Source: Eledone cirrhosa (lineage: Eukaryota). From it: 64,000 nt of DNA. The notes under the pieces were generated by a model that did no database searches, was not told the DNA's origin, and worked only from the letters and a program-made list of their open reading frames with translations. Shown here in pieces: positions 1 through 52,416 of the stretch. Within the stretch, counting starts at the first letter, position 1, and each line of letters starts with the position of its first letter. A program made the position numbers and the translations under genes. The stretch is taken from the NCBI GenBank assembly GCA_964016885.1, contig OZ024749.1, positions 17,608,001-17,672,000 of the forward strand. The letters are read 5' to 3'.

Positions 1-1342
1 ATATTGCGCTTTATCTTCAAAAATATTCTTATTAGCTGAAATTCTAGAAATACGTTGCTGCACAGAGTTTACTATAGTGTTTTTAACGGATCTGGGGTGA
101 TTGGAGTTAAAATTAACGTAGTTTAAGTTCTCGTTTAGTTTGTGAAATGGATAATAAAGACCTGTGTTAAGGTTTAAAGTTACATCTAGAAAGTTAACTA
201 TTTTATAATTATTCTCTATTTCTACTTTAAGATTAAGGTAATTAAAAAATTGTATAATTTCTTTTCTTTTCCTATTTATTTCACAGTTATTATTTTCTAT
301 AAGTAAAAGCATGTCGTCGCGATATAAACCTCCGGTATTTTCCTATGTAGAGTATTATTAATAAAAAGCCCCACAAGATCCGTTATTTGTGCGGAATCGG
401 ATGACCCCATATTGATATCAAAATTACTATCTCTGTCTGCTCTAGTCCAGAGGTGGTTGTTAAATTTAATTAATGTTTTCCGTGCAGTTAAGATAATGTG
501 CATTTCATTACTAGTTAAGTCTGTATGTTTAAATGCATATGTTAGGGCTTTATTAAGTAAATTAGGAGTGATGGATGAGTAATAATTAGCAATATCCAAT
601 TGAATAAACTTATTATTATAGCTATATTTAATGTATTTAAACCAGTCGATAACTTCATTAGTTCCTTTCCATAATTTTAAATAAGATAATTCCTTAATTT
701 GTGGTATGATTCTGTCTTAAATATTCTTGCTAAGTATGCCAAGGTCCGATTTAGATGGTGCAATCAATCTAACTGGTAATTCAATTTCAAAATTCCTTTT
801 ATGGTCCTTCATATTAATTTTTGGTTTCCTAGGCATGAAGGGTTGTGTCCTATTTTCGATGCCTAATTCCTGCATTATGTAAGTAGCTTCCGTATTCAGT
901 TTTTCAAGGTCATCGTTGGTTGTTTTTTTGTATTTCTTCCTTAATTCCTTCAATATAAGATCGTTATAAATATCCTTTTGCATTCCATAGAGATTGTTCG
1001 TTTTATCTGACATGACTAGAATTTTTTTCCGTTTTTTCAAAGCTTTCTATATTAGTTTTGAGATTTCTTAGGTAATCCTGGATTTCGAAGTTGTTTTTTT
1101 TTAAATTTAATGCTTTGAATGATAGAGATGATCTCATTTTCAAAATCCATTAGTAGTTTGTTAGAAGGTGGATTCTTTTTAGATTTGAAGATTCTATTGC
1201 GCATCAGATTTATCGAAGTGGAAAGCTCGCCACCTGAGTCTTCTTATAAATGAGTCTGATTTTTCTATTAGTTGTTTTATAAAGATTTATTCCTAGGTAA
1301 AGGTATGTCCTTTAGAGAAGAAGAGATCTTAAAGAATTCCAT
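1..1342 (-). pseudogene. Penelope-like element (Naiad-like) reverse transcriptase ORF, disrupted; continues beyond window start
   Basis: Minus-strand frames read MEFFKISSSLKDIP, FIRRLRWRAFHF, SDKTNNLY, KDHKRNF..RLIAPSKSDLG, DIANYYSSI, FDINMGSSDSAQITDLVG, GLYRDD (313-324), NFLDVTLNL and SNHP. One in-frame TAA (717-719) and frameshifts. Motif style resembles the Naiad clade (from recall, not a search). Confidence 0.85.
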
Positions 1343-1518
1343 TATTATTCAGTTATAATTTAAAGCGCTCAACAGTAAAGGAGCAACATATATGTAGAGG
1401 TTATATTTAATTTGTTGGGATACAACAAGCAAAATATTTTTTATAACTGATATAAAGCACCCAACAAATTATTGGAGTAAATATTAACAAATGTAAACTA
1501 TATTTATAAAACCATATT

Positions 1519-1584
1519 TATTTCATTATACATATTTCAAGGGCCACCAAGGCAGATTATGGTGCGCTTTCATCAGATAAAATA
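1519..1584 (-). ncRNA. Minimal type-I hammerhead ribozyme (sense to the PLE ORF)
   Basis: Reverse complement reads TATTTTAT-CTGATGA-[AAGCGCACCA..TGGTGGCCCTT]-GAAA-TATGTA-TA-ATGAAATA. Confidence 0.75.
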
Positions 1585-2102
1585 TAATATAGATTAGTTT
1601 TATAAATAAATATTGACATACCCTGAAAAATGCAACCTTCACGGTTGGTGTCTCCTGGATAGTGGAAAAAATAGATTTATCGTTGGTTTATTATGCAAAT
1701 TAGTGTCGGAAAGGTTTAAATAACAGTATATTTAAATTAAGCCGTTGGAAGAGGAGAAAGAGGAAAAGAAGTTGTTTATATCCACTTTTTGCCAGTGGGA
1801 TAGAGTAAACGTGAGTATATTTAAGTGAGAGAGAATATTAGTTATAAGGACAGCAATAGCGTAATTTTGTTTACGCTATGAGAAAAGAAGTGAAGAAATG
1901 AATATAGCATGGATGAATAATAGCCGGATTCATTATAATGATAGGTTGAACAATTTTATCTAAGGTTTAATTAATAAATTTGATTAAATGTTTAATTAAT
2001 AATTTATTAATTCAATCATTAGTTTAAAATTCAACCTATCATTAAAATTAATCCGGCTATTATTCAGGGTATGTCAATATTTATTTATAAAACTAATCTA
2101 TA

Positions 2103-2168
2103 TATTTTATCTGATGAAAGCGCACCATAATCTGCGTTGGTGGCCCTTGAAATATGTATAATGAAATA
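2103..2168 (+). ncRNA. Minimal type-I hammerhead ribozyme (inverted copy)
   Basis: TATTTTAT CTGATGA aagcgcacca..tggtggccctt GAAA TATGTA TA ATGAAATA. Confidence 0.75.
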
Positions 2169-2206
2169 AATATGGTTTTATAAATATAGTTTCCATTTGT
2201 TAATAT

Positions 2207-2247
<41 letters not shown>

Positions 2248-2552: not shown

Positions 2553-2622
2553 GGAAAACATGATATGTTGATTTAAAACTGCACTATCCACAAGTGTTTT
2601 TAACCTTCATATCATGTCTTCC

Positions 2623-2693: not shown

Positions 2694-2723
2694 CATGGAA
2701 CTCATTTAACCATCTTTTGATCT

Positions 2724-2875
<152 letters not shown>

Positions 2876-3200
2876 AGAATTATGTGTGTAATAAATTATG
2901 TGTTGTAATAAATCAAGATATTTCACTTCAGATAGAAAAGTTCACAGTGTTTGTGTTGTGGTGGAAAACGAAATAATACGTACTTTAGTTTTCAAGACCA
3001 AATATAAAGTCAAGAAAAGTTAGTAAAAACTAAATGTTCCCTGATTTCTGATTAAAATAATATTTTCCTGTCCTGTAAAATGTTGAACAACCACTTCAAT
3101 ATTTAATAATGCAGGTGATAAAACAACAATTATAAGGTAAATAAGTCACCTTATGTTATTTACAAACATTAACGTTCACCTTAATATGAAATAATCACCA

Positions 3201-4134
3201 TCTATATATATAAAACTGTGGTTGTCTGTCTGTCTATCGATTTTTGGCACACATCTCCTCTTAGAATCTCTCACGGAATTGCACCGAAATTGCTATACTT
3301 GTACATTGAGCCCTAGCGAAGACATCGGAAAAAAAAATTTCAAATTGACCCACCCTATGTGACGAAATCGAATATAATATATCGATTTTTGAGCGTAAGT
3401 TATCAGTTATTTCCCTTTGTTCTGTTTACATTGAGCGTCTTACGTAAAAAATTACGCTGGCTTTAACAGTTGTCGAGCCAGCAAAATATTGACCTGCAAA
3501 ATTCATCAGTTCGAACACTAACCTTCCGTTTTGCTTCATTTCCATTTAAAAGCATTTTAAAACAATATTTTTACTTGAAAACAAGTCTATTTAAAGACTA
3601 CGTAAAACAAGCAAATATTTCGTCCTTAGGCGTGCAGACAGACAGTCGTGCAGAGAGGTGATATACGCGTGCAGACAGATAGTCGTGCAGAGAGGTGATA
3701 TAGGCGTGCAGACAGACAGTCGTGCAGAGAGGTGATATAGGCGTGCAGACAGACAGTCGTGCAGAGAGGTGATATAGGCGTGCAGACAGACAGTCGTGCA
3801 GAGAGGTGATATAGGCGTGCAGACAGACATAACTGATAATTTGGTTACGCTAATGTTTTTCTCTGCGTTGCAGTGTTTACATTTTCGATCTTTGTTAATA
3901 AATAACCAGTGCAGTTTCTATCCCCAGCATCCTCTTTTGTTATAACATTCGGGTTATCGTTATGTTTTCTTAACTTCATAAGGCATATTGTTGGTTGAGG
4001 GAATATTAATCAAAAACACCACATGCAAGTCTGCACAGTAGACACTACAGTTTTTAAGCCAAGAAAGAAACTTAACATTGTAACTTTAACACAGCTACTG
4101 AGCGACCCCGAGCAACGCCGGGCTTTACTGCTAG
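3201..4134 (+). mobile_element. Non-autonomous Helitron with internal minisatellite
   Basis: Starts TCTATATATATAAAA, ends with hairpin CCCGAGCAACGCCGGG then CTAG. Inserted between A and T with no TSD; the empty site aatcacca|taaaagataaaa is seen at ~21300 and ~41100. Confidence 0.9.
3630..3829 (+). repeat. 37-bp minisatellite, ~5.4 copies
   Basis: Unit cgtgcagacagacagtcgtgcagagaggtgatatagg. Confidence 0.95.
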
Positions 4135-4434
4135 TAAAAGATAAAATTAGATGAGGTTTAATTTGTAACAATGGAGCTGATATAAATGGTAATATTTCAC
4201 TGTCTAGTTGACACCGGTGTCATGTCTTAAAAGTCCCCTACATAATTTAATACATTCAGAAACAACTCCCGTTATGTTAATTCACACCTTCAATCGATAT
4301 GTTAGTAATTTATTCAGATTTGTATAAATAACATTATTAATGTTACATAACTGTTCATATTAAAACAAAACACAATATTAAAGGTAATAAACTAGAAATG
4401 TAAAGAACGAAAAAGGAAAACGAATGAAGCAACT

Positions 4435-4622
4435 AAAATAATTGTTTCTATTTTTGGCACAAGGCCAGCAATTGAATGAAAGGCAGTTTCATCCAAGTTA
4501 GACCCATTAAGGATGAAAGGCAAAGTTAATCTCGGCAGGATTTGAATTCTGACCGTAAAGGGACGTGACTCTATGCTGCAAAGCATGGCGTCCGACCCTC
4601 TACTCATACTGCCAATCCACCT
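4435..4622 (-). mobile_element. tRNA-derived SINE (Meta-domain-like)
   Basis: Reverse complement of the family best seen at 49959-50143. More minus copies at ~5430-5640, 6415-6595, 10860-11010, 14180-14335, 21610-21800, 33843-34015, 50290-50420 and 62510-62696. Confidence 0.8.
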
Positions 4623-6036
4623 AATGGGAGAAGGACAGACTCTATACTCCTGTGTGAGCTGTAACTCAGCCCCACCCTACAGACAAAATGGCAAAGGTGT
4701 TACCACAGAGAATAACTAGAGACACCCACTGCAACATCCACTCCACATATTTAAAGCATTTTTAAATATGAATTATTTCTAAACAAAGTCATAATATTAA
4801 CTGTGATGAAAGTACCATCCAATAAATAATAACCCTTTAATGTTTAAACCGGCCCGAATTCTCTACCTTTTTCTGTTGAAACTGGTCACTCAAACTGATG
4901 TTATGGTATTTTTCTCAAAATAAATACTTTCAAAATCTCATAGATTCGATATTATGTGAGATAATTATGTGAGATAAAGCATTTACCATTAAAATATAAT
5001 AGTATATATAGAATACTGTGGGTACTAAAGGGTTAAAGTTATAAAATTGTTTTTATTTTCTCATAAATGTGGATATTTTGTCACAAATATAAACATAAAC
5101 CAGTTAGGTATTATAAAATAAACACATAATTCTTTTATTTTGTCTGTTGAACTGATGTAGTCATAGGGGTGTCACTGTGGCCATTTGAAGTTTGGTGGAG
5201 CCCTTCACTCTCCAGGTTAGAATAGTTGATTTCTTCCAGAGAAGGAGAAAGAAATATAGAGAGGAAGACTGGTATTGTTTTTTGTGATAGACTGGTATTG
5301 TTTTTTGTCAACCTTGAATGGACAAAAGACAAAGTTGACTTCAGCAGGATTTAAACTCAGAGAGCAGAGAACGAGAACACATATGGCAGAAAGCATTATA
5401 TACATTGTTACATACATAGACATTAGATAATTGTTTCTACTTTTGACACAAGGCTGGCTATTTGAAGGAAAGAGGAATGGAACCCCAACGCATTACTGGT
5501 ACTTTATTTCATCCACCCTGTAAGGATGAAAGGCAAAGTTGACCTTGGCAGGATTTAAACAAAGAACATAAAGGGTTGTAACTATATGTCACAAAGCATG
5601 TTGTTTGATGCTCTACTAATTCTACCAAACCACCACCCACAGCAATAAAATAAGATTGCGTCTCTATAAGAAACCTTAATGACAAATAACATGAAGTAGA
5701 ACTTTCTACAGGGTGTATTTGTGGATTACGATACAAAACCTGAGAATAATTTCTAACATATTTCACCATAATAAATGTTCATTAATATATATTATTATTT
5801 CGTGGCATTCTTGAGATCATTAATCCCTACCTGAACATCCCTAGACATCTGATCTATGTAGGTCATTTTCAGTCATCCCATTAGGGTCTTGCTATGTTTT
5901 GGTATCTACCACAGGAGCCAGCTCGTTGGGTCATCCATTCATCGGTAGGAATGTCCAGGATATCTTGTCCTCGGCTCCCTAGTTATTGTGGTAATCTTTG
6001 ATATATGGCAGTTTATTTCTTCCAATTGATAGAGGA

Positions 6037-6086
<50 letters not shown>

Positions 6087-6180
6087 CACAAATTTAAATA
6101 ATTTTGAAAACCATACAAAGTACTAGAAAATTAAAATTTCCAAGATAACAATAGAATCATTACCTTAGCAAATTAAATAA

Positions 6181-6220
6181 TCCCAAATATTTTCAAGTTT
6201 AAAAACCTATTATCAAGGGA
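6181..6220 (-). ncRNA. Degenerate hammerhead-like motif (U3-A8 core variant)
   Basis: Reverse complement: TCCC-TTGATAA-t-AGGTT..AACTT-GAAA-ATAT-TT-GGGA. Cleavage triplet would be UUU and there is one extra nt after the core. Confidence 0.45.
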
Positions 6221-7956
6221 GAATTAGAATAACTTCCATTATGTTAATTCACACGTTTAATCAATATGCTAGTAATTTATTCAGATTTGTATAAATAACA
6301 TTATGAATTTTGCATGACTGTTCATATTAAAACAAAACACATTTTTAAAAGTAAAAAAATATTTAAGAAATGGAAATGTAAAGCAGAAAAACGAAAACGA
6401 ATCAAGCAACGAAAATAATTTTTTCTACTTTTGGCAGCGGGCCAGCAATTATCCCAGTGTATTACTGATTTTATCCACCCTGTAAGGATGAAAGGCAAAG
6501 TTAACCTCGGCGGGATTTGAACTCAGACCATAAAGGGTCGTAACTCTTTGCTGCAAAGCATGGCGTCCGACCCTCTACCAATACTGCCAATCCATGGAAA
6601 TGTAAAGAAGAAAAACGAAAACGTATCTAGCAACGAAAATAATGGGAGAGAGGGAGAGGGACAGACACTATATTGCAGTCTGAACTGTGATTCAGCGCCA
6701 CCCTACAGACAAAATGGCAAAGGTGTTACCATAGAGAATAGTCAAAGACACTGCAGCATACACCCCATCTCACGGGACTCCTTCCTCAAGGGGGCTGCTG
6801 TCTTTCTAATTTTGAGGAGAAAATCAGCAGTGTGGGGACAAAGATGACATGGTTAGTCAGGCCCTGGTATTTAACTATCTTCCTCTTCTCTCTATTACAG
6901 GTAGTAAAGCTTGGGTTTGTGACTGAAGTGAAAAGGTTGGAGGCAGGGAATGATCCAACCCATGCTAAACCTCCAACTAAAGCTGCTACTTGTCTTTTTC
7001 AGCTGTGGTGATTAGAGACATGTGGAATGTTGTGTCTTGCTTAAGGACACAATGTATCTCCCTGACTGAGAATTGAAAACATGATATTGCAATATGCTGT
7101 ATGACTTCACTATAAAATATATGTTTGTATACATATATATAAGTATATATTTGTGTGTATACATTGTCATATTCAATGAGAGTAACTTGGTCAGCCTATG
7201 AACTCTTCAGCCGAACATTGTATATAAATATACATGTTTGTCAGTGTGTGTGTACATATGTATATATAATGTTGTCAAAACTTCTATATACACGATATTT
7301 AATATTGTCCAATATATATAGACCATATATAATGCTGTCCGAAGGAATGGCTGAAACAGCTTGACCTCAGTGATGTCACAGCTCATCATCATTTAATGTT
7401 CAGTTTCCCTGCTAGCAAGGGTTAGACAGGTTGTCTTCAAAGACCAAGGTGGGGTTGGGGTCCTCCATTCAGTTACATATGGTCACACCTACTGGGTGTA
7501 TTTTGTTGTTGCACCAATACTAAAGTGATTGTCATGTCTTTTACACAGCAGAAGGGTCCGCTCAACCCTTTTTTTTAGCAAATTATCGATAGCTGGATGC
7601 CCTTCCTATCACCAGTATTCATCATATATATATATATGTATATATATACGTATGTATATATGCACTATACAGTCAATATATATACACTACATATATGTAT
7701 ATATATGTATGTATATATGCACTATACAGTCTATATATATACAATCCGGTACTTGGATTTTCAACAAAGAAGTCCAGCGATCTATGTTTACGCATTAAGT
7801 TCAAATCAGCGACTGGCCAGTAACATGTGCTGTATCTACTAGAAATACACACATCATACCAGCTCGTCCCAGTGGCGTGAATAGGGTTATCAACAACTAG
7901 AAACAGCAGTCAAGTCCTTTCAACAGAGTTAGCTCTAAAATTAAGGAGCCGTATTT

Positions 7957-11203: not shown

Positions 11204-11930
11204 CTATGGCATTCCTGAGATCATTAATCTCCAGCTGGACATCATGTGGAAGGGTTTCTCTCCAGTGTGTATTGTCATATGTCTTTTCAAGTCACCACTC
11301 AACACAAAAGATTTCCCACATATTTCACAATGGTAGGGTTTTTCTCCAGTATGACTCCACATGTGGATGACAAGATTAGAATTATAAGTAAAATATTCCC
11401 CACATATTTTACAGTGGAAAGATTTTTCTCCAGTGTGTATTCTTTTGTGTTCTACAAGGTTAGAACTACGAGAAAAAGATTTACCACATATTTCACATGA
11501 ATAAGGTTTATCTCCTGTGTGTATTCTTTTGTGATCTCCAAGATGGACCTTCTGAGAGAAAGATTTCCCACATATTTCACTTGAAAAATTTTTTTCCCCT
11601 GCATGTATTCCTTTGTGTTTTACAAAATTAGCACCATGTGAAAAAGATTTTCCACATATTTCACATTGGAAGGGTTTTTCACCAGTGTGTGTTGTTTTGT
11701 TAACTCCAAGATAGGTCTTCTGAGAAAAACATTTCCCACATATTTCACAATGGTACGGTTTTTCACCAGTATAACTTCCCATGTGGATGACAAGTTTAGA
11801 ATTATCAGTGAAAGATTTCCCACATATTTCCCACTGGAAGGGTTTTTCTCCAGTGTGTATTTTCTCGTGTGAGGTTAGATTCAGTTTTGAAGGGAAAGTT
11901 TTCCTGCAAATCTCAGTTATATTCAGACAT
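11204..11930 (-). pseudogene. C2H2 zinc-finger gene, 5'-frameshifted (residual 192-aa ORF 11204-11782: 6 fingers, 4 intact)
   Basis: The paralogous start MSEY at 11930 is followed by a 2-nt deletion and stop. TGEKP linkers. The 3' end is fused to flank sequence. Confidence 0.8.
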
Positions 11931-12539
11931 ATTTCTAGCTAGTGATCTTTACATAAAGGATTCTCACCACTTTTACTTATATATTAAGAAATGTAGATAT
12001 CGTTAATATATGTTATGTTGTCTAATATACAAAGGGTCCATAAAAGACTGCAGAACTCCGCTTTCTTCTGTCACAAAGTTGTAATGTAGCATTTAGTTGG
12101 TACAAGTAATAAGATATATGACAGCCCAAGACTGATTTTCGCCGAAGAAAATTCAAGCTTATATTATATAATTCAATCAGAGAGTGGGAGAGGGGGGGGG
12201 GGAGATAGAGAGATGTGTGTGTGTAGAAATATGTGTGTACATGTTGTAATAAATCAAGATATTTCACTTCAGATAGGAAAGTTCACAATATGTGTGTTGT
12301 GATAGAAAACAAAATAATACGTACTTTAGTTTTCAAGACCAGATATAAAGTCAAGAAAAGTTAGTAAATACTAAATGTTCACTGATTTCTGATTAAAAAG
12401 ACATTTTCCTGTCCCGTAAAATGTTGAACAACCACCTCAATATTTAATAATACAGGTGATAAAACAACAACTATAAGGTAAATAACGTTATTTACAAACA
12501 TTACCGTCCACCTTAATATGAAATAATCACCATAAAAGA

Positions 12540-15525: not shown

Positions 15526-16119
15526 TTACCGCAAGTGTTGACTACGTAGGTGAACAAACTTTGACGAATTCTGATTGAAAGATTTATCACATATTTCACA
15601 TGAATAAGGTTTTGTACCAGTATGTGCTCTTTTGTTACATACAAGATGAGAACTATGAGAAAAAGATTTACGACATATATCAAAGTGGAAGGGTTTTTCA
15701 CCTGTGTGTGTTCTTTTGTGTTTTACAAGATTTGAACTATTAGAAAAAGATTTACCACATATTTCACAATGGAAGGGATTTTCCCCAGTGTGTGTTCTTT
15801 TGAGATGTTCAAGTTGAGAACTCTGAGAAAATGATTTCCCACATATTTCACAATGGAAGGGATTTTCACCAGTGTGTGTTCTTTTGTGATGTTCAAGTTG
15901 AGAACTCTGAGAAAATGATTTACCACATATTTCACAATGGAAGGGTTTTTTTCCAGTGTGACTCCGTATGTGAACGACAAGATTAGAATTATTTATGAAA
16001 GATTTACCACATATTTCACAGTGGAACGGTTTTTCTCTACTGTGTATTTTCTCATGTGAGGATAGTTTCAGTTTTGAAGAGAAAGTTTTCCTGCAAATCC
16101 CACAGCTATATTCAGACAT
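15526..16119 (-). CDS. C2H2 zinc-finger protein, 197 aa, 7 fingers (2 degenerate)
   Basis: Intact ORF of tandem CxxC..HxxxH units with TGEKP-like linkers and no effector domain. Confidence 0.85.
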   Translation of the reverse strand: MSEYSCGICRKTFSSKLKLSSHEKIHSREKPFHCEICGKSFINNSNLVVHIRSHTGKKPFHCEICGKSFSQSSQLEHHKRTHTGENPFHCEICGKSFSQSSQLEHLKRTHTGENPFHCEICGKSFSNSSNLVKHKRTHTGEKPFHFDICRKSFSHSSHLVCNKRAHTGTKPYSCEICDKSFNQNSSKFVHLRSQHLR

Positions 16120-17164
16120 ATTTCATAAAGGAATCTCACCACTTCCACTCATATATTAAGAAATGTAGCATTCAGTTGGTAAAGTAATAAGATGTGTATG
16201 AAAGCGCAAGACTGATCTTCGAAGAAGAAAAAGCAAGTGCTAATATATATATATGTGTGCAGATGTGTGTGTGTGTGTGTCTATATATATATATATATTT
16301 AATTTTGTTAAGGTGAGACAAGTTCTATTCACAATAACATCCTCAGCTCATAAAACAGACGAATAAGTCTTCATAATTTAAGGTTCTTGTTATTCAGGTG
16401 ACAAGAGAATTAATATCCATAATTTCATATTAAAACAAAACACATTATTAAAGGTATTTCCATTTAAAAAATGGAAATGAAAAAATGAAAAACAAAAACA
16501 TGAGAGAGATGTGGAATGATGTGTCTTGCTTAAGGACACAATGTACCTGCTTTTGAAAACATTATATTAAAATAGGCTGTATGACTTCACTATAAAATAT
16601 ATATATGTTTGTATACATATATATAGTATATATTTGTGTGTATACATTGTCTCATTCCATGAGAGTAACTTGGTCAGTCTATGAACTCCTCATCTGACCC
16701 TTCTATATACATATTTGTCAGTGTGTGTGTACATATGTATATAGAATATTGTCACAACTACTATATACACCACATATACACTATATATAATATTGTCCAA
16801 TATATATAGACTATATGTCATGTTGTCCAAGGGAAAGGCTGATATAGATCGGCACCAGTGACATTACAACTATTATATACACTATATCTATATATATATA
16901 TATATACTACATACACTATATATAATGTCCAGAGGAACGGCTGAAACAGCTTGACACCACCATTTATCATATATATATATATGCACTATACATACTATAT
17001 ATACACTACATATATATCATCATCATCACCATTATCGATTAACATCTATCTTCCATGGGTTACACAAGTCGTATTTTGAGGCAAGTTGTGTAGGGTGACC
17101 ATGACAGCTCATATAGGGGTGTTTCTGGCTGGATGCCCTTCCTAATGCCAACCACATTGACAAT

Positions 17165-20249: not shown

Positions 20250-20365
20250 AACACACACAACATATATGTTGTGATGTATAAGATTTCTCAAGCTTCACAT
20301 TTTATATTCTGCCTTCCAAAGTGTGTCTATATATATATGTTTTTCATATTTCACAGTGATGGGGT

Positions 20366-25185: not shown

Positions 25186-25520
25186 TGTGCCTGTGTACAT
25201 ATATAGCAATAATTTGAGGGTTGTGTTGGTAGTTGATCGTGTTATAGTGTTGGTTCATTTCAACTTAATATGAAATAATCACCATAAAAGATAAAATTAG
25301 ATGAGGTTTAAATTGTAACAATGGAGGTGATATAAATGGTAATATTTCACTGTCTAGTTGACACCGGTGACATGACTTAAAACTCCCCTACATAATTTAA
25401 TACATTCAGAAACAACTTCAGTTATATTAATTCACACCTTCAATCCAATTTTCGTTAAACTCCATCTGATGCTGCTACTCGGCTTCTTGAGCTGTACTGA
25501 TTGGAGACACGTAAAATGAA

Positions 25521-25578
<58 letters not shown>

Positions 25579-40300: not shown

Positions 40301-40440
40301 AGAGCAGAATTATTTATGAAAAATTTCCCACATATATCACAGTGGAAGGGTTTTTCTCTACTGTGTATTTTCTCGTGTGAGGTTAGTTTCAGTTTTGAAA
40401 AGAAGGTTTTCCTGCAAATCCCACAGCTATATTCAGACAT
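37339..40440 (-). CDS. C2H2 zinc-finger protein, 1033 aa, 37 tandem fingers, single coding exon
   Basis: Uninterrupted ORF with 28-aa (84-bp) period; finger 10 has a 4-aa deletion and finger 30 a C-to-R change; no KRAB/ZAD/SET domain. Confidence 0.93.
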   Translation of the reverse strand: MSEYSCGICRKTFFSKLKLTSHEKIHSREKPFHCDICGKFFINNSALVVHIRSHTGEKPFHCEICGKSFAQSSQLEPHKRTHTGENPFHCEICGKSFTQKYNLVNHKRKHTGEKPYSCEICGKSFTRSSHLVNHKRIHTGEKPFHCEICEKSFSQNSHLVCHKRKHTGEKPYSCEICEKSFINNSALVVHIRSHTGEKPFHCEICGKSFSQSSQLEPHKRTHTGENPFHCEICGKSFSRSSQLEPHKRIHTDEKPFHCEICGKSFTQKYNLVKHTGEKPYSCEICGKPFTNNSTLVTHIRSHTGKKPFHCEICEKSFINNSALVIHIGSHTGEKPFHCEICGKSFSLSSHLVCHKRIHTGEKPYSCEICGKSFSHNFILVHHKRTHTGEKPFHCEICGKSFSQSSHLELHKRIHTGEKPFHCEKCGKSFSQSSHLELHKRIHTGEKPFQCEICGKSFTQKYNLVNHKRKHTREKPYSCEICGKSFTRSSHLVNHKRIHTGEKPFHCEICEKSFSQNSHLVCHKRKHTGEKPYSCEICGKSFINNSALVVHIRSHTGEKPFHCEICGKSFSQSSQLEPHKRTHTGENPFHCEICGKSFSQSSQLEPHKRTHTGEKLFYCEICGKSFSNSSNLVKHKRTHTGEKLFYCEICGKSFSNSSNLVKHKRIHTGEKPFHCEICEKSFTQKYNLVKHKRKHTGEKPYSCEICGKSFTNNSTLVTHIRSHTGEKPFHCEICEKSFINNSALVIHIGSHTGEKPFHCEICGKSFSRSSHLVCHKRIHTGEKPYSCEMCGKSFSHNFILVHHKRTHTGEKPFHREICRKSFSQSSQHETHKRIHTGEKPFHCEICGKSFSQSSHRELHKRIHTGEKPFHCEICGKSFTQKNNLVNHKRKHTREKPYSCEICGKSFTQSSHLVNHKRIHTGEKPFHCEICEKSFSQNSHLVCHKRKHTGEKPYSCEICGKSFTRSSHLVNHKRIHTGEKPFHCEICEKSFSQNSHLACHKRKHTGEKPYSCEICGKSFTVNSSMVVHLRSQHLR

Positions 40441-40991
40441 ATTTCATAAAGGAATCTCACCACTTCCACTCATATATTAAGAAATGTAGCATTCAGTTGG
40501 TAAAGTAATAAGATGTATGAAAGCGTAAGACTGATCTTGGAAGAAGAAAAAGCAAGTGCTAATATATATATATGTGTATGTGTGTGAATATATATTTTTT
40601 ATTTTTGTTAAGGTGAGAGAAGCTCTATTCACAATAACATCCTCAGCTCATAAAACAGACGAATAGGACTTCGTAATTTAAGGTTCAGGTGACAAGAGAA
40701 TATCAATAATTTCAAAAGACGAATGTTAATATATATACATATATATATAGACATACAGTGTGTACGTATGAAAGAGAGAAATAGACGTGTGTGTGTGTGT
40801 GTGTAGTAATATGTGTTGGTGTTGTAATAAGCCAAGATATTTCACTTCAGATAGAAAAGTTCACTTTTTTTGTGTTGTGATGGGAAACGAAATAATACGT
40901 ACTTTAGTTTTCAAGACCAAATATAAAATCAAGAAAAGTTAGTAAAAACTAAATGTTCACTGATTTCTGATTAAAATAATATTTTCCTGTC

Positions 40992-41924: not shown

Positions 41925-44674
41925 TCCTCATCCGACCCTTCTATATGTATACACATCTTTCTCAGTGAGTGTGTACATATGTATATAGAATATTGTCACA
42001 ATTACTATATACACCACATATACACTATATATAATGAGAGGATCTCGCTTCTGTTTTCTGGAATTTCTACCTATATATATATTCTACATACAATATATGA
42101 TGTTATCCAAAGTGAGGTCAATAGCTGATATAACTTGGTGCCAGTGTCATCACAACTAATATATACCCTATATACAGACGTGTGGCTGAGTGGTTAGAGA
42201 ATTGGATTCGCAATCGTGAGGTTGTGAGATTGATTCTCCGACCGGGCGATGCGTTATGTCCTTGAGCAAGACACTTTATTTCATATTGCTCCTTCTACCT
42301 GGAGTTGCGACCGATAGATAGTATTAGCAATTGGAAAGACCAATGGAAACATTGTTTTCTCAGTCCGATTTCACTAAAGTCGATCAACTATTGATACACT
42401 AATATATACAATATATATATCTTCTATACATACTTGGGAGTACCCTGAGCAACAGCGGCAACTTTGAGATGGACACCAAATGCAGGGTTGTAAAGGTGAC
42501 TACGGTGTTCCAATGGATGCACTCAATTTGGTCAAACAGAGCCATCAGCTTGTATTTCAAGCTGCGCTTGTACACTAGCATGGTACTTCCAAAGCCCATC
42601 TCTGACTCCAAAAAATGGAAACACAATGTGAAGATGGATAGGTGTCTAAAAACTTTCCATTAAAGGAGCCTGCATAAGATTCTAAAGGTCAGCTGGTGAG
42701 ATCCTGTGGAGTGCAGGGTCACATACACAGCAGGTCATTATGGAACGTAGGTTCTATTTTGCAGGTCACATTCTGCACCTCCAAGATCACCTGTCCAAAA
42801 CGGCGATGACATGGATTCCCCTTGAAGGCAAGTGGAAAAGAAGCCGTCCGAAGATGACCTGGTGGATCACATTCCAAAATGACCCACAAACTGTCAACAT
42901 CAGCTGGCATGAATGTCAACAAGCTGTCACCAACTGAAATCATTGGAGACAATTAGTTAATGGTAGTGGTAGTGTTTGCTGGTAAGTTGTTGGTGTATAC
43001 ACATATGTTGTTGTTGTTAATGTCACCACTGCTATCACTGCCTTCCTCTTGTTGATGGTAGTGATAATTGTTGGTGCTACCTATATCAGCTATCAAGCTG
43101 GCTGCTGTATCAGCTTCTGTGATTGATGCTCCAATGGCCTTCTTGACCAAAGATGCAGGTCAATGGCTTTTGGCATCGTTTGGCAATACAACAGCAAATA
43201 AATATATTCTCTATATTTTTTTTTATTTATTTCTAATCTGATTCAATATTATCAATTGGAAAGACCAATGGAAACATTGTTTCATTCGTCCAATCTGATG
43301 AATTCCACTCCACTTGGTAAGAACTGAGATGTTGAAATTTATTACAAAAAAAAATCACTAAAATCAAGATCCTGGGTTGGTATAACTAACTGGTTTGTAT
43401 GTGTCTGTTGTAGTGTGGTATGTGGTGTGTTGTGGTGTTTTGATGTGGTGCGTGTGCAGGGTGATGTGTTGTTGTGTGTGTGTAGTGTAAAGAGGAAATT
43501 TTACACACATAGGACCTAGAAGGGGTGTGTGAGGACTCTACCCCCTACAACCCTCTCAGAAATAAATGGATGAAGAAAAAGAGAAGAAAGTATTTTCAAA
43601 TGTGAATTATTTTTTTAAAAAGTCAAAAACAACTGTCATGAAAGTACCATCCAACACATATTAAAGTTATGCAATTGTTTTTATTTACACATGTGGATAT
43701 TTTGTCATACATATAAACCAGTTAAGGTTTACAAAATAAACAAATACAAACACACAATGCTTTTTTTGTTTTTAAATGTAGTCATAAGGGTGTCACTGTG
43801 GACATTCGAAGCTTGGTGGAGCTGTTCACTCACCAGGTTTGAACAGTTGGAACAGAGAAGGAGAGAGAATAAGAGGGAGGAAGTGAGATAGAAATATAGA
43901 GAGGAAGAACAGACCCCAGTGATAGACTGGTATTGATTTTTATCAATCTTGAATGGACGAATGAAAGTTGACCTCAGCAGGATTTAAACTCAGAGAACCA
44001 GGATAAATATGGCAGAAAGCATTCTATCTATTGTTTTATAGACTTTAAATAAATGTTTCTACTTTTGAATCAGGCCAGTGCATTACTGTTACTGTTTTTT
44101 ACCTTGAATGGATGAAAGTCAAAGTTGACCATGGCATGATTTAAACCCAGAACATAAAGGACTGTAACTTTATGACACAAAGCATATCGTATGACACTCT
44201 AAGAGCCCTTAATGACAAATATTATGAAGGGGTACTTTCTACAGGGTGTATTTGTTAATTACAATTCAAAACCTCTGAGAATGATTTCCAACATATTTCA
44301 TCATAATAAATGTTCATCAATATATAACATTATTATTAATATTATTATTATTTTCTGCTAGCATGTGTAGTGTGCATATTGATATTATACGCAGGTATAT
44401 GATACATCAAATAAAATCATAATTGACAATATATAATACATAGAAATTGAACGAAGACTGTGTTACACTCTCTTATTTAATCAGTAATGTAATCCATGAT
44501 ACATTAAAAAAGACGATATTATATATAAACTGCATTAGGAGAAAATTAGTGACGGAAATATATGAATGTTTATTTAAGAAGTGAATCTTTAAATAAACAA
44601 AATATATTTAATCAACAGTCACGAAATTTAGTAGATAAATTATGTAATATTCATTCATTATTTATTCAAAGTAA

Positions 44675-44840
44675 TCGGTAGAGGGTCGGACGCCATGCTT
44701 TCCAGCATAGTTACGTCCCTTTACGATCTGAGTTCAAATCCTGCCGAGGTTGACTTTGCCTTTCATCCTTACGGGATCGATAAAATAAAGTACCAGTAAT
44801 GCACTGGGTATTTGCTGGCCTTGTGCCTAAAGTAGAAACA
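44675..44840 (+). mobile_element. 5'-truncated Meta-type SINE
   Basis: Near-identical to 49978-50143. Confidence 0.85.
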
Positions 44841-45670
44841 ATTATTTATTCACACAAGCACACAAATAAACATACATATCTTTACTTCAATAGAAAATCT
44901 CCCCAGCGAACTAACCATATTCACAGAACCAGAACAATTCTCCCAATCCCATTTCTCTTGACCACTATCTTTCCCTTGTCATAACATTCTCTATAAAGGC
45001 TACAGAATAGATTTCCAAATAAGGGCGTAAAAATGTAATGAAAACTTGTTCACGTGACAGCCAAATTTCATCTATAACCAATCAAATCACGTTTATTAAA
45101 AAAAAGCCTTCGTGATCCACCTTTTTTTTAAGTAAAGAAATTCAAACACACACACACACAACACACACAAGCACACAAGTAAACATACATATCTTTACTT
45201 TCTTTATTCAATAGAAAATCTGAATTCTGACACCCCAGCGAACTAACCATATTCACTGAACCAGAACAATTCTCCCATCCATTATCTTTCACTTATCATA
45301 AAATTCTCTAAAAAGGCTCCAGAATGGATTTCCAAATAAGGGCACGAAAATTTAATGAAAACTTGTTCACGTGACAGCCATAATTTCATTTATAACCAAC
45401 CCCAAAAAAGCCTTCGTGAGCCCCTCTTTTCAAGTAAAAAGAAATTCAAACACTCATATATGAAAAAACAACCTGTGACAACCCCCCCCCCTCTTATTTG
45501 AAGAACTATTGTAACGCGAACTGGCGCGAAATTTATTATAATTATTGACAAACCAATCAAATTACTTCTCGAAAAACCTGGCATTTCGAGCCACTTTTTC
45601 CATATAAAACAAGTAACATTCAGAGACCAACCAGATGTGAGAAAAACCACAGACCCTCCATCTCAACTCA

Positions 45671-45708
45671 CCTTTTGAAAAGCAGAAGAACTGCGAAACC
45701 GGTAAAGG
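45671..45708 (+). ncRNA. Minimal hammerhead ribozyme, U3-A8 core variant
   Basis: CCTT-TTGAAAA-GCAG aagaa CTGC-GAAA-CCGG-TA-AAGG; predicted GUA cleavage after 45704, 170 nt upstream of the ATG. Confidence 0.75.
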
Positions 45709-45874
45709 AAGCAAATAAATATATATATTTAAAAAAAAAATAAGACTCCAGTTGCATTTTCGATTTCATCTCTTTTTCTTTATACTTTCACTCGTGTAGG
45801 ACACCTCGGTTATTTTTCATTTTGTAAAAAAAAACCTCACTTTCTAATATATACCCACCACACGAAGACCGAAA

Positions 45875-48800
45875 ATGCCACCAAAGTCTCAACAAAACAA
45901 CAACTCACTGAACCAGGACATCTTAAATGAACTCAAAGAGATTTCCTCTAAACTCTCAATTTTGACCAACAAAGTGGACCAAATACACATCTATAAAAAA
46001 GGAGCCCACGAAGAAACAGAAAATACCCAAGAGACGAATATTACTCCAGTATTAACTAAGCTAATCGAAACCATTGAAACAGCAATGCTCCCAAAGCTGG
46101 AACAACCGTTAGAACCCAATCTACGAGATGTCCAATCAGTGAAAAACCCCCTAATCAACATATGGACTCAAAAGCTCACAGCCCACAAATTCGCCCTTTG
46201 GAATCTCCTAAAAATTATTGGCAAGGCAGACATATATGAAAAGTGGCTAAACTCTACCCCAATCATCCTCCCCAAAAAACTCCAAATAAAACCCATCCCG
46301 AATGAACCAGAAAACCAACAAAGACTTAGGGAAAAGATGGCATTGGAAAAATTTAAAACAGAAATAGAACTGTTGCGATTAAGAGCCAACTCCAACGAAG
46401 AAAAATTCAAGTCACTCGACCAACAGATGGACACAGAAATCTCAAAGCACTCTGAAGGCCTACTCTACAAAAAACCCTAAAACTTTGGAAAGAAAACTGT
46501 GAGGATGAAGAACTAACATCCCTCCAGCGATGTGAAAAAAACGCCACCTGGTTCAACAACTACGAAATGGACTTCAAAAATGAACAACATACAGGTAATC
46601 CATTTTTAAAACAAACTAAAACTCACACACCACATGCACAAAAATAACAAAAAAAGTAACAAAACGTCCAACATACCCCCAGCAAAACTATAACGATAAT
46701 CCCAGAAACCATAGACAAAACTATAACCCTACTAACAAAAACCAAAGATCCCCGAACACAAGGCAGGACCTGATCCGCAGATCACAACCCACACAAAACC
46801 TATTCCAAAACCGGTGACCCCTGCCCACACAGAGCCTGTTCCAAAACCGTAGATCCCAACCCACACAAAGGAACAAAATCTACAACCCGGACTATCAACA
46901 AACCGAACCTCAATACGTCCGAAACTTCTATACAAGACCACACAACAACAGGGGAAATACCATTAGATATAATAATACCATTGAAAAAACATTCCAGAAA
47001 AATCATTTTTTAGACCAAGGCTACAGGACTCACGACACCCGGTGGCACAAACCGATTTTGAAAAACCGAAAATAATTAACCTTTCAAATACAAACCTCTC
47101 AGCCCAACAAGTAAAAATTCTCTCCAAAGGACTGAAATTCACACCAACACCACAATACTCTAACCCCAATGAGATAAATGACGATATCTCACACTTCTGT
47201 AGAAAATTACGTCTCACAGAGGAATTCTTCGACAAGGAGAATAACGACGAATCAATTGTACGGAATAAAAGCAGCTACAACCCAACAAAAGGTAGAAACA
47301 GAGTTCTGGACAAATTTTGTGACCACATAGCTACCTTCCCATACCATGAACTACCGCAACCTAAACCCAAACCCAACACGAGTCGAATGGGAGATTATCC
47401 ATGAACTAAAAAACAATACGGACATTATAATTAAGGAAGCGGACAAGGGAAGTACTGTTGTCATTATGGAGGCTGAAAAATATAAAAATTCTATGTTCTC
47501 TCTCTTACAAAATACTAATTACTATGAAAGAGTAAAAAACTACCAGCAATCAAAAATAATGACCAAATTAAACACACTGATTTATCGATACCAGGAAGAC
47601 CTAACGAAAAAGGAACGCGATTATTTAACAAATGTTGAATACAAAACCAGCAACCTTTACGGACTTCCGAAGATCCACAAGTGTAAAATAATCAACGATG
47701 CCTGTAAACAATCCACCTCAGCCTGCGTGAAGACACAATACCCCACAGACCTTAAATTAAGACCAATTGTAGCGGGCCCACAATGTGAAACACACAGACT
47801 GAGCAACTTTATAGACATACTACTGAAACCAATACTGAAACACATACCTAGCCTTGTAAGAGACGATCTGGACCTCTTAAACCACCTCCCCAAACATGTC
47901 AACAACGACACTATTATTGTGTCTGTCGATGTAGTGAATCTCTACACAACGATCCCACACCAATACGGACTAGAAGCAATAGGATTCTGGCTAGAGAAAT
48001 ATCCCAATGAGATACCTGACAGAATAGAAAAAAGCTTCATCACCGAGGGATTAAAATTCATCTTACAGAACAACTTTTTTGATTTCGATGGCAATACTTA
48101 CAAGCAAATATCGGGGACTGCGATGGGTACAAAAGCCGCTCCAACTTAGTCATGGCATACTTATATGAACAGATATATGAACAGTCCAAATCAAAATACG
48201 GATTGAACTTCCACAAATATTTATCAGAGAATTGGAAACGCTACTTGGATGATTGCCTCATTCTTTGGTCCCACACACTCGACCAACTGAAGGATTTCAA
48301 AAACTTAATAAACGGCATCAATAACCACATCCAATTCACAATGGAATACAGCCAAGATCAACTCCCATTTCTGGACATCTTAATCTTAAAAAAAGACACA
48401 AATATCGAAACTGACATACACTACAAACCAACAGATTCCAAACAATATCTGCTATTCACCTCTAACCATCCAAAGCACACGAAGACGAACATTCCTTTTA
48501 ACCTAGCAAGATGAATTTGCACAATTGTCTCCAATTATGAAACGCGAAATAAAAGACTTCAAGAATTAAAGGAAATTCTACTCGAGAGAGAGTACCCACT
48601 ATTACTAATAAATAATGGAATAGAAAGGACTAAAGCAATAGGTATTGATGAATTACGGAAACAGAAACAAATTCAAGGTACGTCCAATATTCTATCATAT
48701 ATCTCAACACACAACCCAAGAAATGCGGAAGCTTACAACACTATTCACAACAACATCCCACTACTAAAACAAAACCCAAGAATGAAAAAAGCCCTAGAAA

Positions 48801-49297
48801 CACACAAAATAATCAAAAGCAAAAGACAACCAAAATCACTGAAAACATTACTCACCAATGCCAAATTACCTACCACAAACCCACAACCAAGTATCAAAAA
48901 ATGTGGTCGCTCTAATTGTGGAACCTGCACTCACCTCATTGAAGGCAACACGTATACATTTAAATCAGGACAAAATTTTACTGTAAAAAATCACTTCACT
49001 TGCTCATCAAAAAATCTAATTTATGCCATTAAATGTAAAGGATGCAATGAAGATTATATAGGACAAACTAAACTCACACTCAGAAACAGAATGACAGTTC
49101 ATCGCCAACAATTACGAGATCCAACCACGAGACAGATACCACTAAGTGCACATCTAGACATTTGCGCAAGTAATAAGACACCCAAATTCCAAGTCTTCCC
49201 ATTTTACCTTTGCGCTAACAATACAACAGAACAAATACGAATAAATAAGGAAAATACGTTTATTCAAAAATATAGACCAGCATTAAATATGGTTTAA
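45875..49297 (+). pseudogene. PLE polyprotein: N-terminal extension, RT, Cys-rich linker, GIY-YIG endonuclease; several stops and frameshifts
   Basis: LSKGLKFTPTP, LYGLPKIHK, LRPIV, DVVNLYTTI, GTAMGT, RYLDD, PFLD, CGRSNCGTC, NLIYAIKCKGCNEDYIGQT. Confidence 0.93.
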
Positions 49298-49958
49298 TAT
49301 ACATTATGTCAACACCATAATATGACATACATACACACACATAACACCTACTTTAGAAAATAAAAACCCGAACTAAATAAACCTTAACATACGTTTGCAC
49401 TGACAATACAACAGAACAAATACGAATAAGTAAGGAAAATATGTTCATTCAAAAATATTCCTACTAAAGGAATCATTTTCCTACACACACACACACACAC
49501 ACACAATATATATATATATGTATTCTCTTCATCTTAACATGTTAACCATACTCCCACACACATAACACGCATACACACACATAACACCCATATACACACA
49601 CACACAACTCCCTCCCCCATTTCTACTAATAGAATCATCTTCCAATACACACACACAAGCACACAAATAAACATACATATCTTTACTTCAATAGAAAATC
49701 TGAACTCTGACACCCCAGCGAACTAACCATATTCACTGAACCAGAACAATTCTCCCAATCCCATTTCTCTTGATCACTATCTTTCCCTTGTCATAACATT
49801 CTCTATAAAGGCTACAGAAATGTAATGAAAACTTGTTCACGTGACAGCCAAATTTCATTTATAACCAATCAAATCACGTTTATTAAAAAAAAGCCTTCAC
49901 TGAACCAGAACAATTCTCCCATCCCTTTCTCTTGACCATTATCTTTCACTTATCATCA

Positions 49959-50143
49959 GGGCGGTGGATTGGCAGTATCGGTAGAGGGTCGGACGCCATG
50001 CTTTCCAGCATAGTTACGTCCCTTTACGATCTGAGTTCAAATCCCGCCGAGGTTGACTTTGCCTTTCATCCTTACGGGGTCGATAAAATAAAGTACCAGT
50101 AATGCACTGGGTAATTGCTGGCCATGTGCCTAAAGCAGAAACA
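49959..50143 (+). mobile_element. Full-length Meta-type SINE with 19-bp TSD inside the PLE 3' pLTR
   Basis: TSD attatctttcacttatcat at 49938-49956 and 50144-50162; A and B boxes present. Confidence 0.92.
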
Positions 50144-50476
50144 ATTATCTTTCACTTATCATAAAATTCTCTAAAAAGGCTACAGAATGGATTTCCAAAT
50201 AAGGGTACGAAAATTGAATGGAAACTTGTTCACGTGACAGCCATAATTTCATTTATAACCAACCAAAAAAAAGCCTTCGTGAGCCCCTTTATTTTATCGA
50301 CCCCATAAAGATGAAAAGCAAAGTTAACCTGGGCAGGATTTGAACTCAGACCGTAAAGGGGCGTGACTCCGTGGTTCAAAACATGGCGTCCGACCCTCTA
50401 CTCATACTGGTAATCCACCTAATGGGAGACGGACAGACACTATACTCCTGTCTGAGCTGTGACTCAACCCCTCCCT

Positions 50477-52416
50477 CGCCTGACCGAAAAGTTGTTAGTT
50501 TTATAGGGTTCTGACCGGAAGTTACAGAAAGGGTTCTACTTCCTGTCTAGATGGTGTTAATCTATTGGGGTTGTGAGTGTCACAACAAGGGAGGCAACCT
50601 CCTGCTACATAACCTCCCGCCAGAATTTTAAAATATAAAAATCGAATGAAATATGTAGCAAGTTGGCGAGAATGTTGTAACAGGCATGAAAATTACGACA
50701 AAAGAATGTTTGCAAAAATCAATGATAGATATCAAGGTAGCGAACCGCTCTTGGCCAGAGAACGACTGGACATCTATCTATCCATCACCCAAAGATACAA
50801 TGTAATAAAGTAAGAGAAGAGCTCAAAGTTCAAATGTACAAAATATAGTTCACAGGTGGGCAATCACATGACAGCAGGAAAGAAAGTGTGTTCCAGAGAA
50901 TGAATCCAGGTGGTTTCTGTTCTGTGGTATATCGTGAAATTTCCAACCTCCGAATGGATTTTCTCACAGGAAGAGTGCTGCAAAAATAAATTCTCTGGCT
51001 TGTTCTGCTGGTTTTGGTTGTTGGTGAAGCTGTGTTGCTGTTGATGTTGTTGTCTCGCGGAGTGATCGTATTCGGTGTTTAAATTCACAGTAAAAAAAAT
51101 AATTTTTTTTCAGAAAAAATGAGTTGCGCAAAGTGCTAGAAATAACAGCCGAAGTTGATGGTCGATGTTGAGAATGCGTTGACCTGGAAGAGTCAAGAGG
51201 CCAGCGACCAAAGAAATAAGCATTCTGAATAAATGCGCAGTTTTCAACGGCACATTTACGTGGTAAATTTTTAAACCGGCAAATAGGAGAATATAGCTTA
51301 AGACTGAAGAATCCTTGGCGAGAAACGTTATCTCTGGCTATCTCTGTGAGTCGAGAATTTGTGCTGCCTACACGTGCCAATACAAGGTTAAGTTAGGTTG
51401 AAAAAATAATATTTCTAATGCGCGAGAAAATGATAGTGCAACGGGTCGTTGGCAGCCATTTTGAAAAAAAATGTGTGTGTGAAAGTGACAATAATGAAAA
51501 AGAAAGGCTTCACTTAGCATAATTATTGGTGTGAACTTTTGAAAAAAAAAAAAAAAAACTTGAACGATGAAGAAAACGATGAAAAAAAAGGCAATGGTTC
51601 ATCGAAAATAAATGTTCCTGTTGAAATGTTTTTTAAAAAAAAATAGCAAATTTCTTTTTTTTTTTGTTTTGAAAGTATTCGTTGTAAGAAACGAGAAACA
51701 TATATATATATCGTGAAATGCGACAGTTAGTTGATGCGTGAGAGAAAACGTCTGTCTGAACGCGAATTTCACATGTGCGTGGTGTGTTCGTTTCTTGGAG
51801 AAACATATATATATATACAGCAAACTGCGACAGTTAGTGGATGCGTGAGGGAAAAAGAGTGTCTGCACGAAAGTTTCACATGTGCGTGTGTGCGTTTCTT
51901 TGACTGAGTATTTTCATAGTTTGTCAATAAATTTGCTGTATATTCGTAATGTTACTCACACAACACCAGATTCTGCTATTTTTTTCTTTTTTCGGGTTGA
52001 CCACTTATAACAATGAACGGCTGCGTGTTCGTATCACGTCAGGGTTACCAATATAGCGTGTATGAATGTAACAAGGAGACATGGTTTGTGTGTATAATAT
52101 TTAATTAACAATCATGGATATATATAGAACAGTATAGTTGTCATGTCAAAGAAATAAATGAAAGAATGAAGCAAAGTTATTAGTTACCGTTTGATTGCCA
52201 AATGAACGTGGCTGGCAGAAGACGCCTGGGGTAGGACTCCTGGCGAAAGCCAGGCGGCGCCTGACCGAAAAGGCGAATGAGAGAGTGAGAACTTAAAGTT
52301 GTTAGTTTTATAGGGTTCTAATCGGAAGTTACAGAAAGGGTTCTACTTCCTGTCTAGATGGTGTTAATCTATTGGGGTTGTGAGTGTCACAACAAGGGAG
52401 GCAACCTCCTGCTACA
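50477..52416 (-). mobile_element. Duplicate of the non-autonomous LTR element, retaining the LTR end/PBS junction
   Basis: 5' LTR 52052-52416; PBS ..ATCACGTCAGGGTTACCA ends at 52050; 3' LTR truncated. Confidence 0.9.

Follow-up and report, generated by a model that had tools for sequence, protein, structure and literature searches.

The 64,000-nucleotide stretch of DNA analysed here (the window) lies in a cluster of C2H2 zinc-finger (ZNF) genes, and some of its ZNF cassettes lack the coding exon. Penelope-type elements (PLEs) or hammerhead sequences are found at some of these positions, raising the question of whether PLE insertion removes ZNF genes. An earlier note on this DNA proposed that PLE insertion, often at TA or CA microsatellites bordering the exon, drives or accompanies ZNF loss. 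Our analysis indicates that PLEs do contribute to ZNF turnover, though to a minor extent, and act through known kinds of process.

Cassettes and ZNF exons in the window

Self-BLAST and a map of the cassette parts confirmed that a unit of 3' flank, ZNF exon and 5' block recurs about seven times, as noted earlier. The ZNF exons are on the minus strand. Exons A (11204-11938) and B (15526-16122) each contain 4 strict C2H2 motifs and exon C (about 20365-20716) contains 2. Exon D (37339-40443) is an open frame of 1034 aa with 34 strict C2H2 motifs, and its duplicate D', with 15 fingers, lies just right of the window. The 3' end of exon A is fused into the flank through a PLE-free deletion. Another PLE-free break, absent from the earlier note, borders an orphan 5' block at 25258-25445 (plus strand; self-BLAST and part map), which has a second copy at 53304-53483. 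Among full-length proximal 3' flanks, 24 of 28 carry at least (TA)4.

The three exon-less positions singled out earlier (sites 1 to 3) are real, with no ZNF present left of 2820, at 6030-6230 or at 44851-50288. They do not, however, amount to three separate gene losses driven by PLEs. The window has type I hammerhead motifs at 1576 (minus), 2111 (plus) and 2544 (minus), compared with none in any of 20 resampled 64-kb sequences; their folding z-scores are only -0.5 to -1.2. An Rfam scan of the window (E<=1) returned 33 matches, which are AT-repeat miRNA/snoRNA noise, and no hammerheads.

PLEs at the three exon-less positions

At site 1, a broken PLE occupies 1-2206 (minus strand) and extends to ~4.8 kb left of the window. 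It consists of ORF remains (1-1380), a pseudo-LTR (1388-1995) and an inverted pseudo-LTR piece (1984-2206). Each pseudo-LTR has a canonical type I hammerhead motif, the candidate motif at 1514-1587 (minus) and its inverted copy at 2100-2172 (plus). In three-frame translation, the endonuclease remains are C-terminal, after the RT, and the linker has CxCX5C and no CCHH, as in Hydra. The element also has RWR and DKT motifs (RWK and DKT in the Hydra definition) and TA repeats at both ends. Judged by these motifs, not by a tree, it is a Hydra-type PLE. Its earlier label, Naiad, is refuted by the C-terminal endonuclease and the canonical hammerheads, since Naiad has an N-terminal GIY-YIG and no canonical hammerhead. 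A Nematis-like reading was also dropped, the motifs fitting Hydra.

The hammerhead palindrome reported left of 2825 was borne out. It is formed by a second hammerhead-bearing repeat at 2437-2738, with 143-nt arms that are 95% complementary; the hammerhead core is intact in the minus arm and altered in the plus arm. The site 1 breakpoint is a (TA)n(GA)n microsatellite at 2724-2825. The same Hydra joint occurs again 86 kb to the left and lacks the palindrome there, suggesting that the palindrome nested in the TA repeat after the site 1 joint had formed. To the right lies an orphan 5' block (2820-4745, plus strand) without ZNF. The 3' flank is absent as well, so site 1 does not have the two flanks once attributed to it. 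Off-chromosome paralogues of this block on C8, C18, C23 and C28 have kept the ZNF to their left in 4 of 4 cases.

At site 2, the 3' flank of an empty cassette (5033-6025, plus strand; part map) is followed by a (TA)n at 6038-6082, a PLE piece at 6083-6227 (to ~6230; minus strand) whose 3' end lies at this repeat, and the distal part of the 5' block (6228-7140, plus strand), which is joined to the PLE piece. The region 6030-6230 was thought to hold a hammerhead-like remnant. A search of 6083-6230 for the non-permuted type I form (CUGANGA and GAAA cores with stems I-III) gave no match on either strand, nor did Rfam; the sequence is instead the 5'-truncated 3' end of a pseudo-LTR that belongs to a third family of PLEs, one whose GIY-YIG is C-terminal. 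This 148-bp piece lies downstream of the PLE endonuclease end in 11 of 12 loci, and a reading as a MITE arm was rejected on this ground. Its pseudo-LTR has inverted (palindromic) copies, a one-ended 35-nt tail and a TA target. A GIY-YIG fragment near one 148-bp copy belongs to a different family. The site 2 joint is present in 6 copies on six contigs, which go back to a single old joint. The PLE piece fills the entire interval, and its truncated end abuts host DNA directly in 5 of the 6 copies (those read).

At site 3, the 3' flank of the empty cassette E (43252-44672, plus strand) recurs 27 kb to the right with 99.6% identity, likewise without ZNF. Next to it is a tRNA-type SINE in a hot spot (44674-44853, plus strand), whose right target-duplication copy is cut by the 5' joint of the PLE. 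This SINE is also found, with 97.8% identity and at equal offset, in another exon-less cassette 271 kb to the left. The PLE itself (44851-50288, plus strand), reported as Neptune, is real and Neptune-type by its motifs, which Nematis shares. Its pseudo-LTRs are in partial tandem, and a broken ORF (45848-49297) includes a GIY-YIG endonuclease (PF01541, E 8e-8). CCHH and CX2-5CxxC linker motifs, found in Nematis too, are present in ORF 48515-49297. The frameshifted pieces gave no match to an RT in Pfam. The hammerhead at 45671-45708 is degenerate, with its stems present and its core altered, and another SINE lies in the last pseudo-LTR (49955-50148).

The sequence from 50288, previously taken as a 5' block remnant, does not belong to E's own block; here begins a tandem duplicate of the region that opens in the 5' block of cassette C. 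The segment 50288-50476 (plus strand) is 95.8% identical to 21667-21855 and 98.9% identical to a C-type paralogue 57 kb to the left, and the pseudo-LTR meets this block over 2 shared bases. The first copy of the 27-29 kb duplication spans 21666-50288 (plus strand), and the second runs from 50288 to ~13.4 kb right of the window. The PLE and the E flank are 99% identical between the copies; outside the finger array, substitutions amount to 0-2.8% per 500 columns, with many indels. The right joint of site 3 is a gene gain (an extra 15-finger gene), not a loss. After the second PLE copy come (TA)n and pieces of RTE and Gypsy elements, and a 5' block is absent. A 3' transduction by the PLE was rejected as the source of the duplication, other sequence being found after the second copy. 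In a tree of 51 distal flanks, mostly unresolved with 7 of 46 forks starred, E is placed beside an exon-bearing C8 cassette with weak support (91/77). Among the pieces compared, short-read contigs of other samples yielded no bridging contig over 43300-51000 or the 50288 joint, a comparison deprived of power by repeats and given no weight here; 11 public sequencing runs are listed, none containing half of the query words, with no RNA run among those listed as matching.

Exon-less joints across the cluster and a four-copy palindromic series

The genome has roughly 500 candidate cassettes (475-579). A census of 1.46 Mb and 43 further loci, using a home-made and incomplete PLE library to which the four-copy palindrome family described below was added afterwards, counted 88 flank-ZNF-block cassettes (at most 4 counted twice) and 42 exon-less joints. 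A PLE lies at the break in 6 of the 42 joints, and 35 have no PLE in the gap. Counts of empty cassettes overstate the number of events: a single joint without PLE is found 74 times across the genome, compared with 6 for the site 2 joint. The joints were curated by hand into 19 types, 5 of which are PLE-bounded against a background of 6-11% (p 0.004-0.05). This count excludes palindrome descendants on C8 and C12, found through an element search, and 3 of the 5 types were the earlier note's own picks. The remaining two lie outside the window and give 2 of 16 types, which is no enrichment (p 0.23-0.54). The excess over background across all 19 types leaves room for a larger PLE role. Insertions in cassettes coincide with loss in 5 of 9 cases for PLEs and in 11 of 42 for other elements (p 0.12), and three PLE insertions in exon-keeping cassettes are clean. 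PLE pieces nest in TA repeats across the spacers. Within the 1.46 Mb, the joints of sites 1 and 2 were never seen without their PLE, and no copy combining a site 1-3 insertion with an intact exon was found. The earlier proposal holds in that PLEs land at TA microsatellites beside the exon and bound some of the losses. A role as their driver is not supported, in view of the 35 joints with no PLE in the gap, the 74 copies of the PLE-free joint, the 2 of 16 unpicked types, the clean PLE insertions and the gene gain at site 3.

A 413-bp insert 121 kb to the left deletes a ZNF stop codon. It is high-copy and TA-targeting, has no ORF or hammerhead, and was excluded from the counts.

One hammerhead repeat has 1811 candidate copies, and its palindrome centre occurs four times in the genome, in every case at the same TA repeat within a cassette. 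The ZNF is intact with start and stop at the copy on C9 141.6 kb to the left, and 3'-truncated at that on C8. At C9:16.99 Mb it is lost together with the 5' block, and on C12 it is absent for 15 kb past the arm. The four copies descend from a single palindromic insertion but differ in the fate of the ZNF, so the loss likely followed the insertion there, contradicting simultaneous deletion. Compared with two others, the C8 descendant has a right arm that is longer by 55 nt, and a single-origin history therefore needs one extra step. Two more pieces of the family, which may share this origin, lie 27 kb and 187 kb to the left, and no ORF was found beside the element in 10 loci.

Explanations for the exon loss and related systems

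The explanation we consider probable is a duplicating C2H2 cluster that loses exons by varied deletions and duplication joints. PLEs bound a minority of these, likely through their TA preference and by supplying break points, either at insertion or later through palindromic ends. In this process, the PLE endonuclease would target a (TA)n beside the ZNF exon. Host sequence on the 5' side of the element would then be lost, possibly at insertion at sites 1-3, or by later breakage at an inverted repeat, which is favoured for the four-copy series. The damaged cassette may subsequently be copied along with its neighbours, making one event appear many times.

A more direct role, in which PLE insertion itself deletes the exon from the TA target to a distant second break and is a main route of ZNF death, appears decidedly unlikely. 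In its favour, a TA repeat borders the 3' end of the element at both site 1 and site 2, host DNA being missing on the element's 5' side, and the second PLE copy of site 3 ends at (TA)n. Sites 2 and 3 lack a target duplication and miss host DNA at the joint, as in insertion-mediated deletion, and both the 5 of 19 joint types and the 5 of 9 insertions lean the same way. The former excess, however, depends on types picked in advance, the 74-copy joint is PLE-free, one descendant in the four-copy series keeps its exon, and clean PLE insertions exist. Conversely, PLEs may be passengers that landed in leftover TA repeats after the exon had gone, or that patched a foreign break. This is quite unlikely, although the nesting of PLE pieces in spacer TA repeats, the younger age of the 2437-2738 palindrome relative to the site 1 joint, and the SINE shared with the exon-less cassette 271 kb away would fit. 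On the far side of the E gap lies a Gypsy element with no target duplication, to which that break could belong. At site 2, however, the PLE piece fills the interval and meets host DNA directly; PLE-free versions of the site 1 and site 2 joints were absent from the 1.46 Mb, and the pairing of E with an exon-bearing cassette, weak as it is, points the same way.

An assembly error joining two haplotypes in tandem at site 3 is very improbable. The patchy divergence and many indels between the copies are allele-like, but the joint connects unrelated sequences over 2 bases with no homologous overlap, and the cluster has many older tandem duplicates spanning several cassettes. It is possible, but unlikely, that head-to-head Penelope/hammerhead insertions at exon-bracketing TA repeats act as recurrent sites of fragility, at which exons are removed and tandem duplications start. 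One class of retroelement would then power both the death and the birth of genes in cephalopod-type zinc-finger clusters, and a single genome would preserve a natural series of intact, truncated and lost exons. Should PLE palindromes prove to be weak spots, they would offer a concrete, datable route of turnover for a large family of invertebrate transcription factors. The order of insertion first and loss later can be checked directly in the four-copy series, across haplotypes and species. Full-text and title searches, with most subscription journals outside reach, found no description of a Penelope link with the octopus C2H2 cluster.

The locus resembles octopod C2H2 clusters in its clustered, tandemly duplicated genes on several chromosomes (PMC9795677); exon loss and PLEs, treated here, are not treated in the relevant part of that account. 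Hydra, Naiad and Neptune PLEs prefer TA targets (Craig et al., 2021; PMC8557442). Our elements share with the Hydra and Neptune clades a C-terminal GIY-YIG, pseudo-LTRs, inverted 5'-truncated copies, a one-ended tail and (TA)n targets. By the definitions given there, the left element has Hydra motifs and the right one a Neptune-type linker with CCHH, a placement by motifs and not by tree. Host gene loss, described here, is not mentioned in the corresponding part of that paper. The four-copy element is like non-LTR retrozymes, non-autonomous PLE derivatives (Li et al., 2026; bioRxiv 10.64898/2026.07.22.740005), in being a short non-coding type I hammerhead repeat related to PLE pseudo-LTRs, but differs in its arrangement, a head-to-head palindrome instead of a tandem array. 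In patients with SVA insertions at NF1, deletions of near 1 Mb arose concurrently with insertion (Vogt et al., 2014; PMC4229983). There, as here, a retroelement lies at the deletion joint and host DNA is missing, whereas our PLEs are at TA repeats, with deletions of a few kb and a timing that is later or unproven. Palindrome-mediated breakage and deletion (PMC7999016) likewise involves closely spaced AT-rich inverted repeats that break at the centre or arms; the palindromes described here differ in coming from head-to-head PLE-type insertion and in being known from a paralogue series rather than an assay.

Exon-less joints across the cassette family

Self-comparison and part mapping revealed a repeated order in the window of 3' flank, minus-strand C2H2 zinc-finger (ZNF) exon and 5' block, hereafter a cassette. 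The family has ~475-579 candidate loci, spread over many contigs of the 3.0-Gb animal genome. Using five reference parts, all from cassette D, we mapped 1.464 Mb of cluster DNA from C9, the contig carrying the window at 17608001-17672000, and from contigs C8, C18, C23 and C28, together with 43 of 60 short loci; the other 17 already lay within those regions and were dropped. Coordinates beyond the window are counted from its first base. This sample contains 88 cassettes with the flank-ZNF-block order, up to four of them counted twice where loci overlap. It also contains 42 joints at which a 3' flank runs directly into a 5' block.

An earlier note proposed that insertion of Penelope-like elements (PLEs) drives or accompanies ZNF loss. 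The observation largely holds, but the causal claim survives only as a minor route. No PLE was found in the gap at 35 of the 42 joints. A PLE lies within 200 bp of a break at six (five copies of site 2, 6030-6230, and site 3, 44851-50288), and at one joint PLE pieces lie deep inside an 8.8-kb gap. The most frequent PLE-free joint, with 74 matches across the genome, may represent a deletion after short tandem duplication, or a flank inserted into a 5' block.

Reduced by hand to 19 types, the joints are PLE-bounded in five, and in two of the 16 types that the note had not named (one with a hammerhead piece at 271 and 245 kb left, the other with such a piece at C9:16.99 Mb). As background, 5.7% of positions have a known PLE piece no more than 100 bp away, a value doubled because each joint has two breaks; the incomplete PLE library biases background and hits downwards. 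The enrichment expected from the proposal is seen across all 19 types (p 0.004-0.05) but not among the 16 held-out types (p 0.23-0.54). PLE pieces also occur in cassettes that keep their exon: the exon is left in place in 4 of 9 PLE insertions inside cassettes, versus 31 of 42 non-PLE insertion groups (p 0.12).

Several variants were observed alongside. At the PLE-free joint L193:2130-2173 a short stretch of flank is repeated in templated fashion, a pattern similar to the signature of polymerase-theta repair. At L222:8675-9075, a TA-targeting repeat (4412 candidate copies), in which neither ORF nor hammerhead was seen, replaces the stop codon and 3' flank of a ZNF. The 5' block stands alone in tandem on contig C1 (L178, L179; ~985 bp per copy, no exon), and on C18 three 2.2-kb mini-cassettes form an array in which every unit has a short ZNF that looks intact (L065-L066).

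The three exon-less positions in the window

The site 3 element has a GIY-YIG domain (domain search), Neptune-type linker motifs and tandem pseudo-LTRs, its terminal repeats. A SINE is older than this element, whose 5' joint interrupts the SINE's target duplication. A second copy of the cassette E flank and PLE lies 27 kb right (99% identical), and the stretches 22.5-50.3 kb and 50.5-77.4 kb are collinear, with 0-2.8% substitutions outside the finger array. Past 50288 comes a C-type 5' block, which shares two bases with the pseudo-LTR at the junction; 50288 is therefore a tandem-duplication joint, and the supposed 5' block remnant is the start of the duplicate. The duplication added gene D', which has 15 fingers where D has 34. 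The second PLE copy stops at (TA)n; beyond it lie RTE and Gypsy pieces, after which normal spacer resumes. Comparison with an intact E-type paralogue 21 kb left shows that ~3.4 kb has gone, the E exon with it, so the exon loss is real; it could be attributed to either the PLE or the Gypsy element.

D (37339-40443) and D' (L017, ~66.1-67.4 kb) are recent duplicates, 19 fingers apart with flanks only ~1-2% different. The Gypsy-type element at 80375-85536 (L018-L019) cuts the tail of an RTE, has 92% identical LTRs without a target duplication, and is possibly a recombinant of two copies. A tRNA-type SINE occupies a hot spot at the distal 3' flank end (14849, 44672 and paralogues), lying at the motif ATTATTTATTCAAAGT in 12 of the 49 flanks listed and showing seven or more distinct 5' joints; it is tandem twice and follows an inverted duplication twice, and its 3' end is similar to the target. 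A Helitron-like insert (3202-4134; TC...CTAG, subterminal hairpin) lies between A and T, its empty site visible at 41103/41104. Short MITE-like inverted repeats surround a (TA)n run at 25487-25610 and 53536-53625.

At site 2, flank and block are indeed joined without a ZNF, but the remnant read as hammerhead-like is a 148-bp PLE piece in which no hammerhead motif was found. The piece is a high-copy repeat (1429 genome candidates); of 12 loci retrieved with upstream sequence, 11 have the end of a PLE endonuclease upstream of it. At site 2 its 3' end adjoins the flank's (TA)n, and its 5' end, which is truncated, meets the distal 5' block. The joint has six genome copies, one each on C8, C9, C14, C18, C23 and C28 (five fully read), and is a single old event copied along with the cluster.

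At site 1, left of 2820, the closest ZNF lies 6-8 kb beyond the window's left edge and is a diverged gene that has a 5' block of its own. Neither exon nor 3' flank was found between it and 2820; the interval is filled by a PLE carrying nested inserts, a pseudo-LTR piece in inverted orientation and a second hammerhead palindrome. Because a ZNF precedes the homologous block in all four paralogous clusters (C8, C18, C23, C28), the exon is absent here, as had been suspected, but the 3' flank is missing too. Site 1 may therefore have arisen by rearrangement and not by a simple deletion. The joint has a duplicate 86 kb to the left in which only the pseudo-LTR palindrome stands against the microsatellite; the palindrome at 2437-2738 is thus younger than the joint. 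The element, previously called Naiad, shows on sequence reading a C-terminal endonuclease, a CxCX5C linker, RWR and DKT motifs and canonical hammerheads; no CCHH motif was found in it. These features match Hydra and exclude Naiad, as far as the descriptions in Craig 2021 (PMC8557442) extend.

A palindrome and its probable descendants

A non-coding hammerhead repeat (1811 candidate copies) makes head-to-head palindromes. One palindrome centre has exactly four genome matches (none in a reversed control), all at the same cassette TA repeat. One copy keeps an intact four-finger frame and has lost the left flank; in another the right arm is joined into the exon. The third breaks off at the centre and continues into spacer, with exon and 5' block lost, and in the fourth the exon is absent for 15 kb beyond the arm. 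The simplest reading of these sequences is that one insertion was duplicated and that the copies were then eroded by separate deletions starting within the palindrome; one arm-length difference would require an extra step. Palindromes are known break sites (PMC7999016).

Another hammerhead-bearing repeat, at 25754-25943 and 27535-27940 (copy at 53780 and 56825), is split within stem II by an LTR element; its family also bounds the exon-less cassette 271 and 245 kb left.

Relation to known processes

Our literature search found no published link between PLEs and these ZNF clusters; the supplements of Craig 2021 may list the elements. The component processes of this cluster are all of known kinds: TA-targeting PLEs (Craig 2021, PMC8557442), retroelement-associated deletion (PMC4229983), palindrome fragility (PMC7999016) and tandem C2H2 expansion (PMC9795677).
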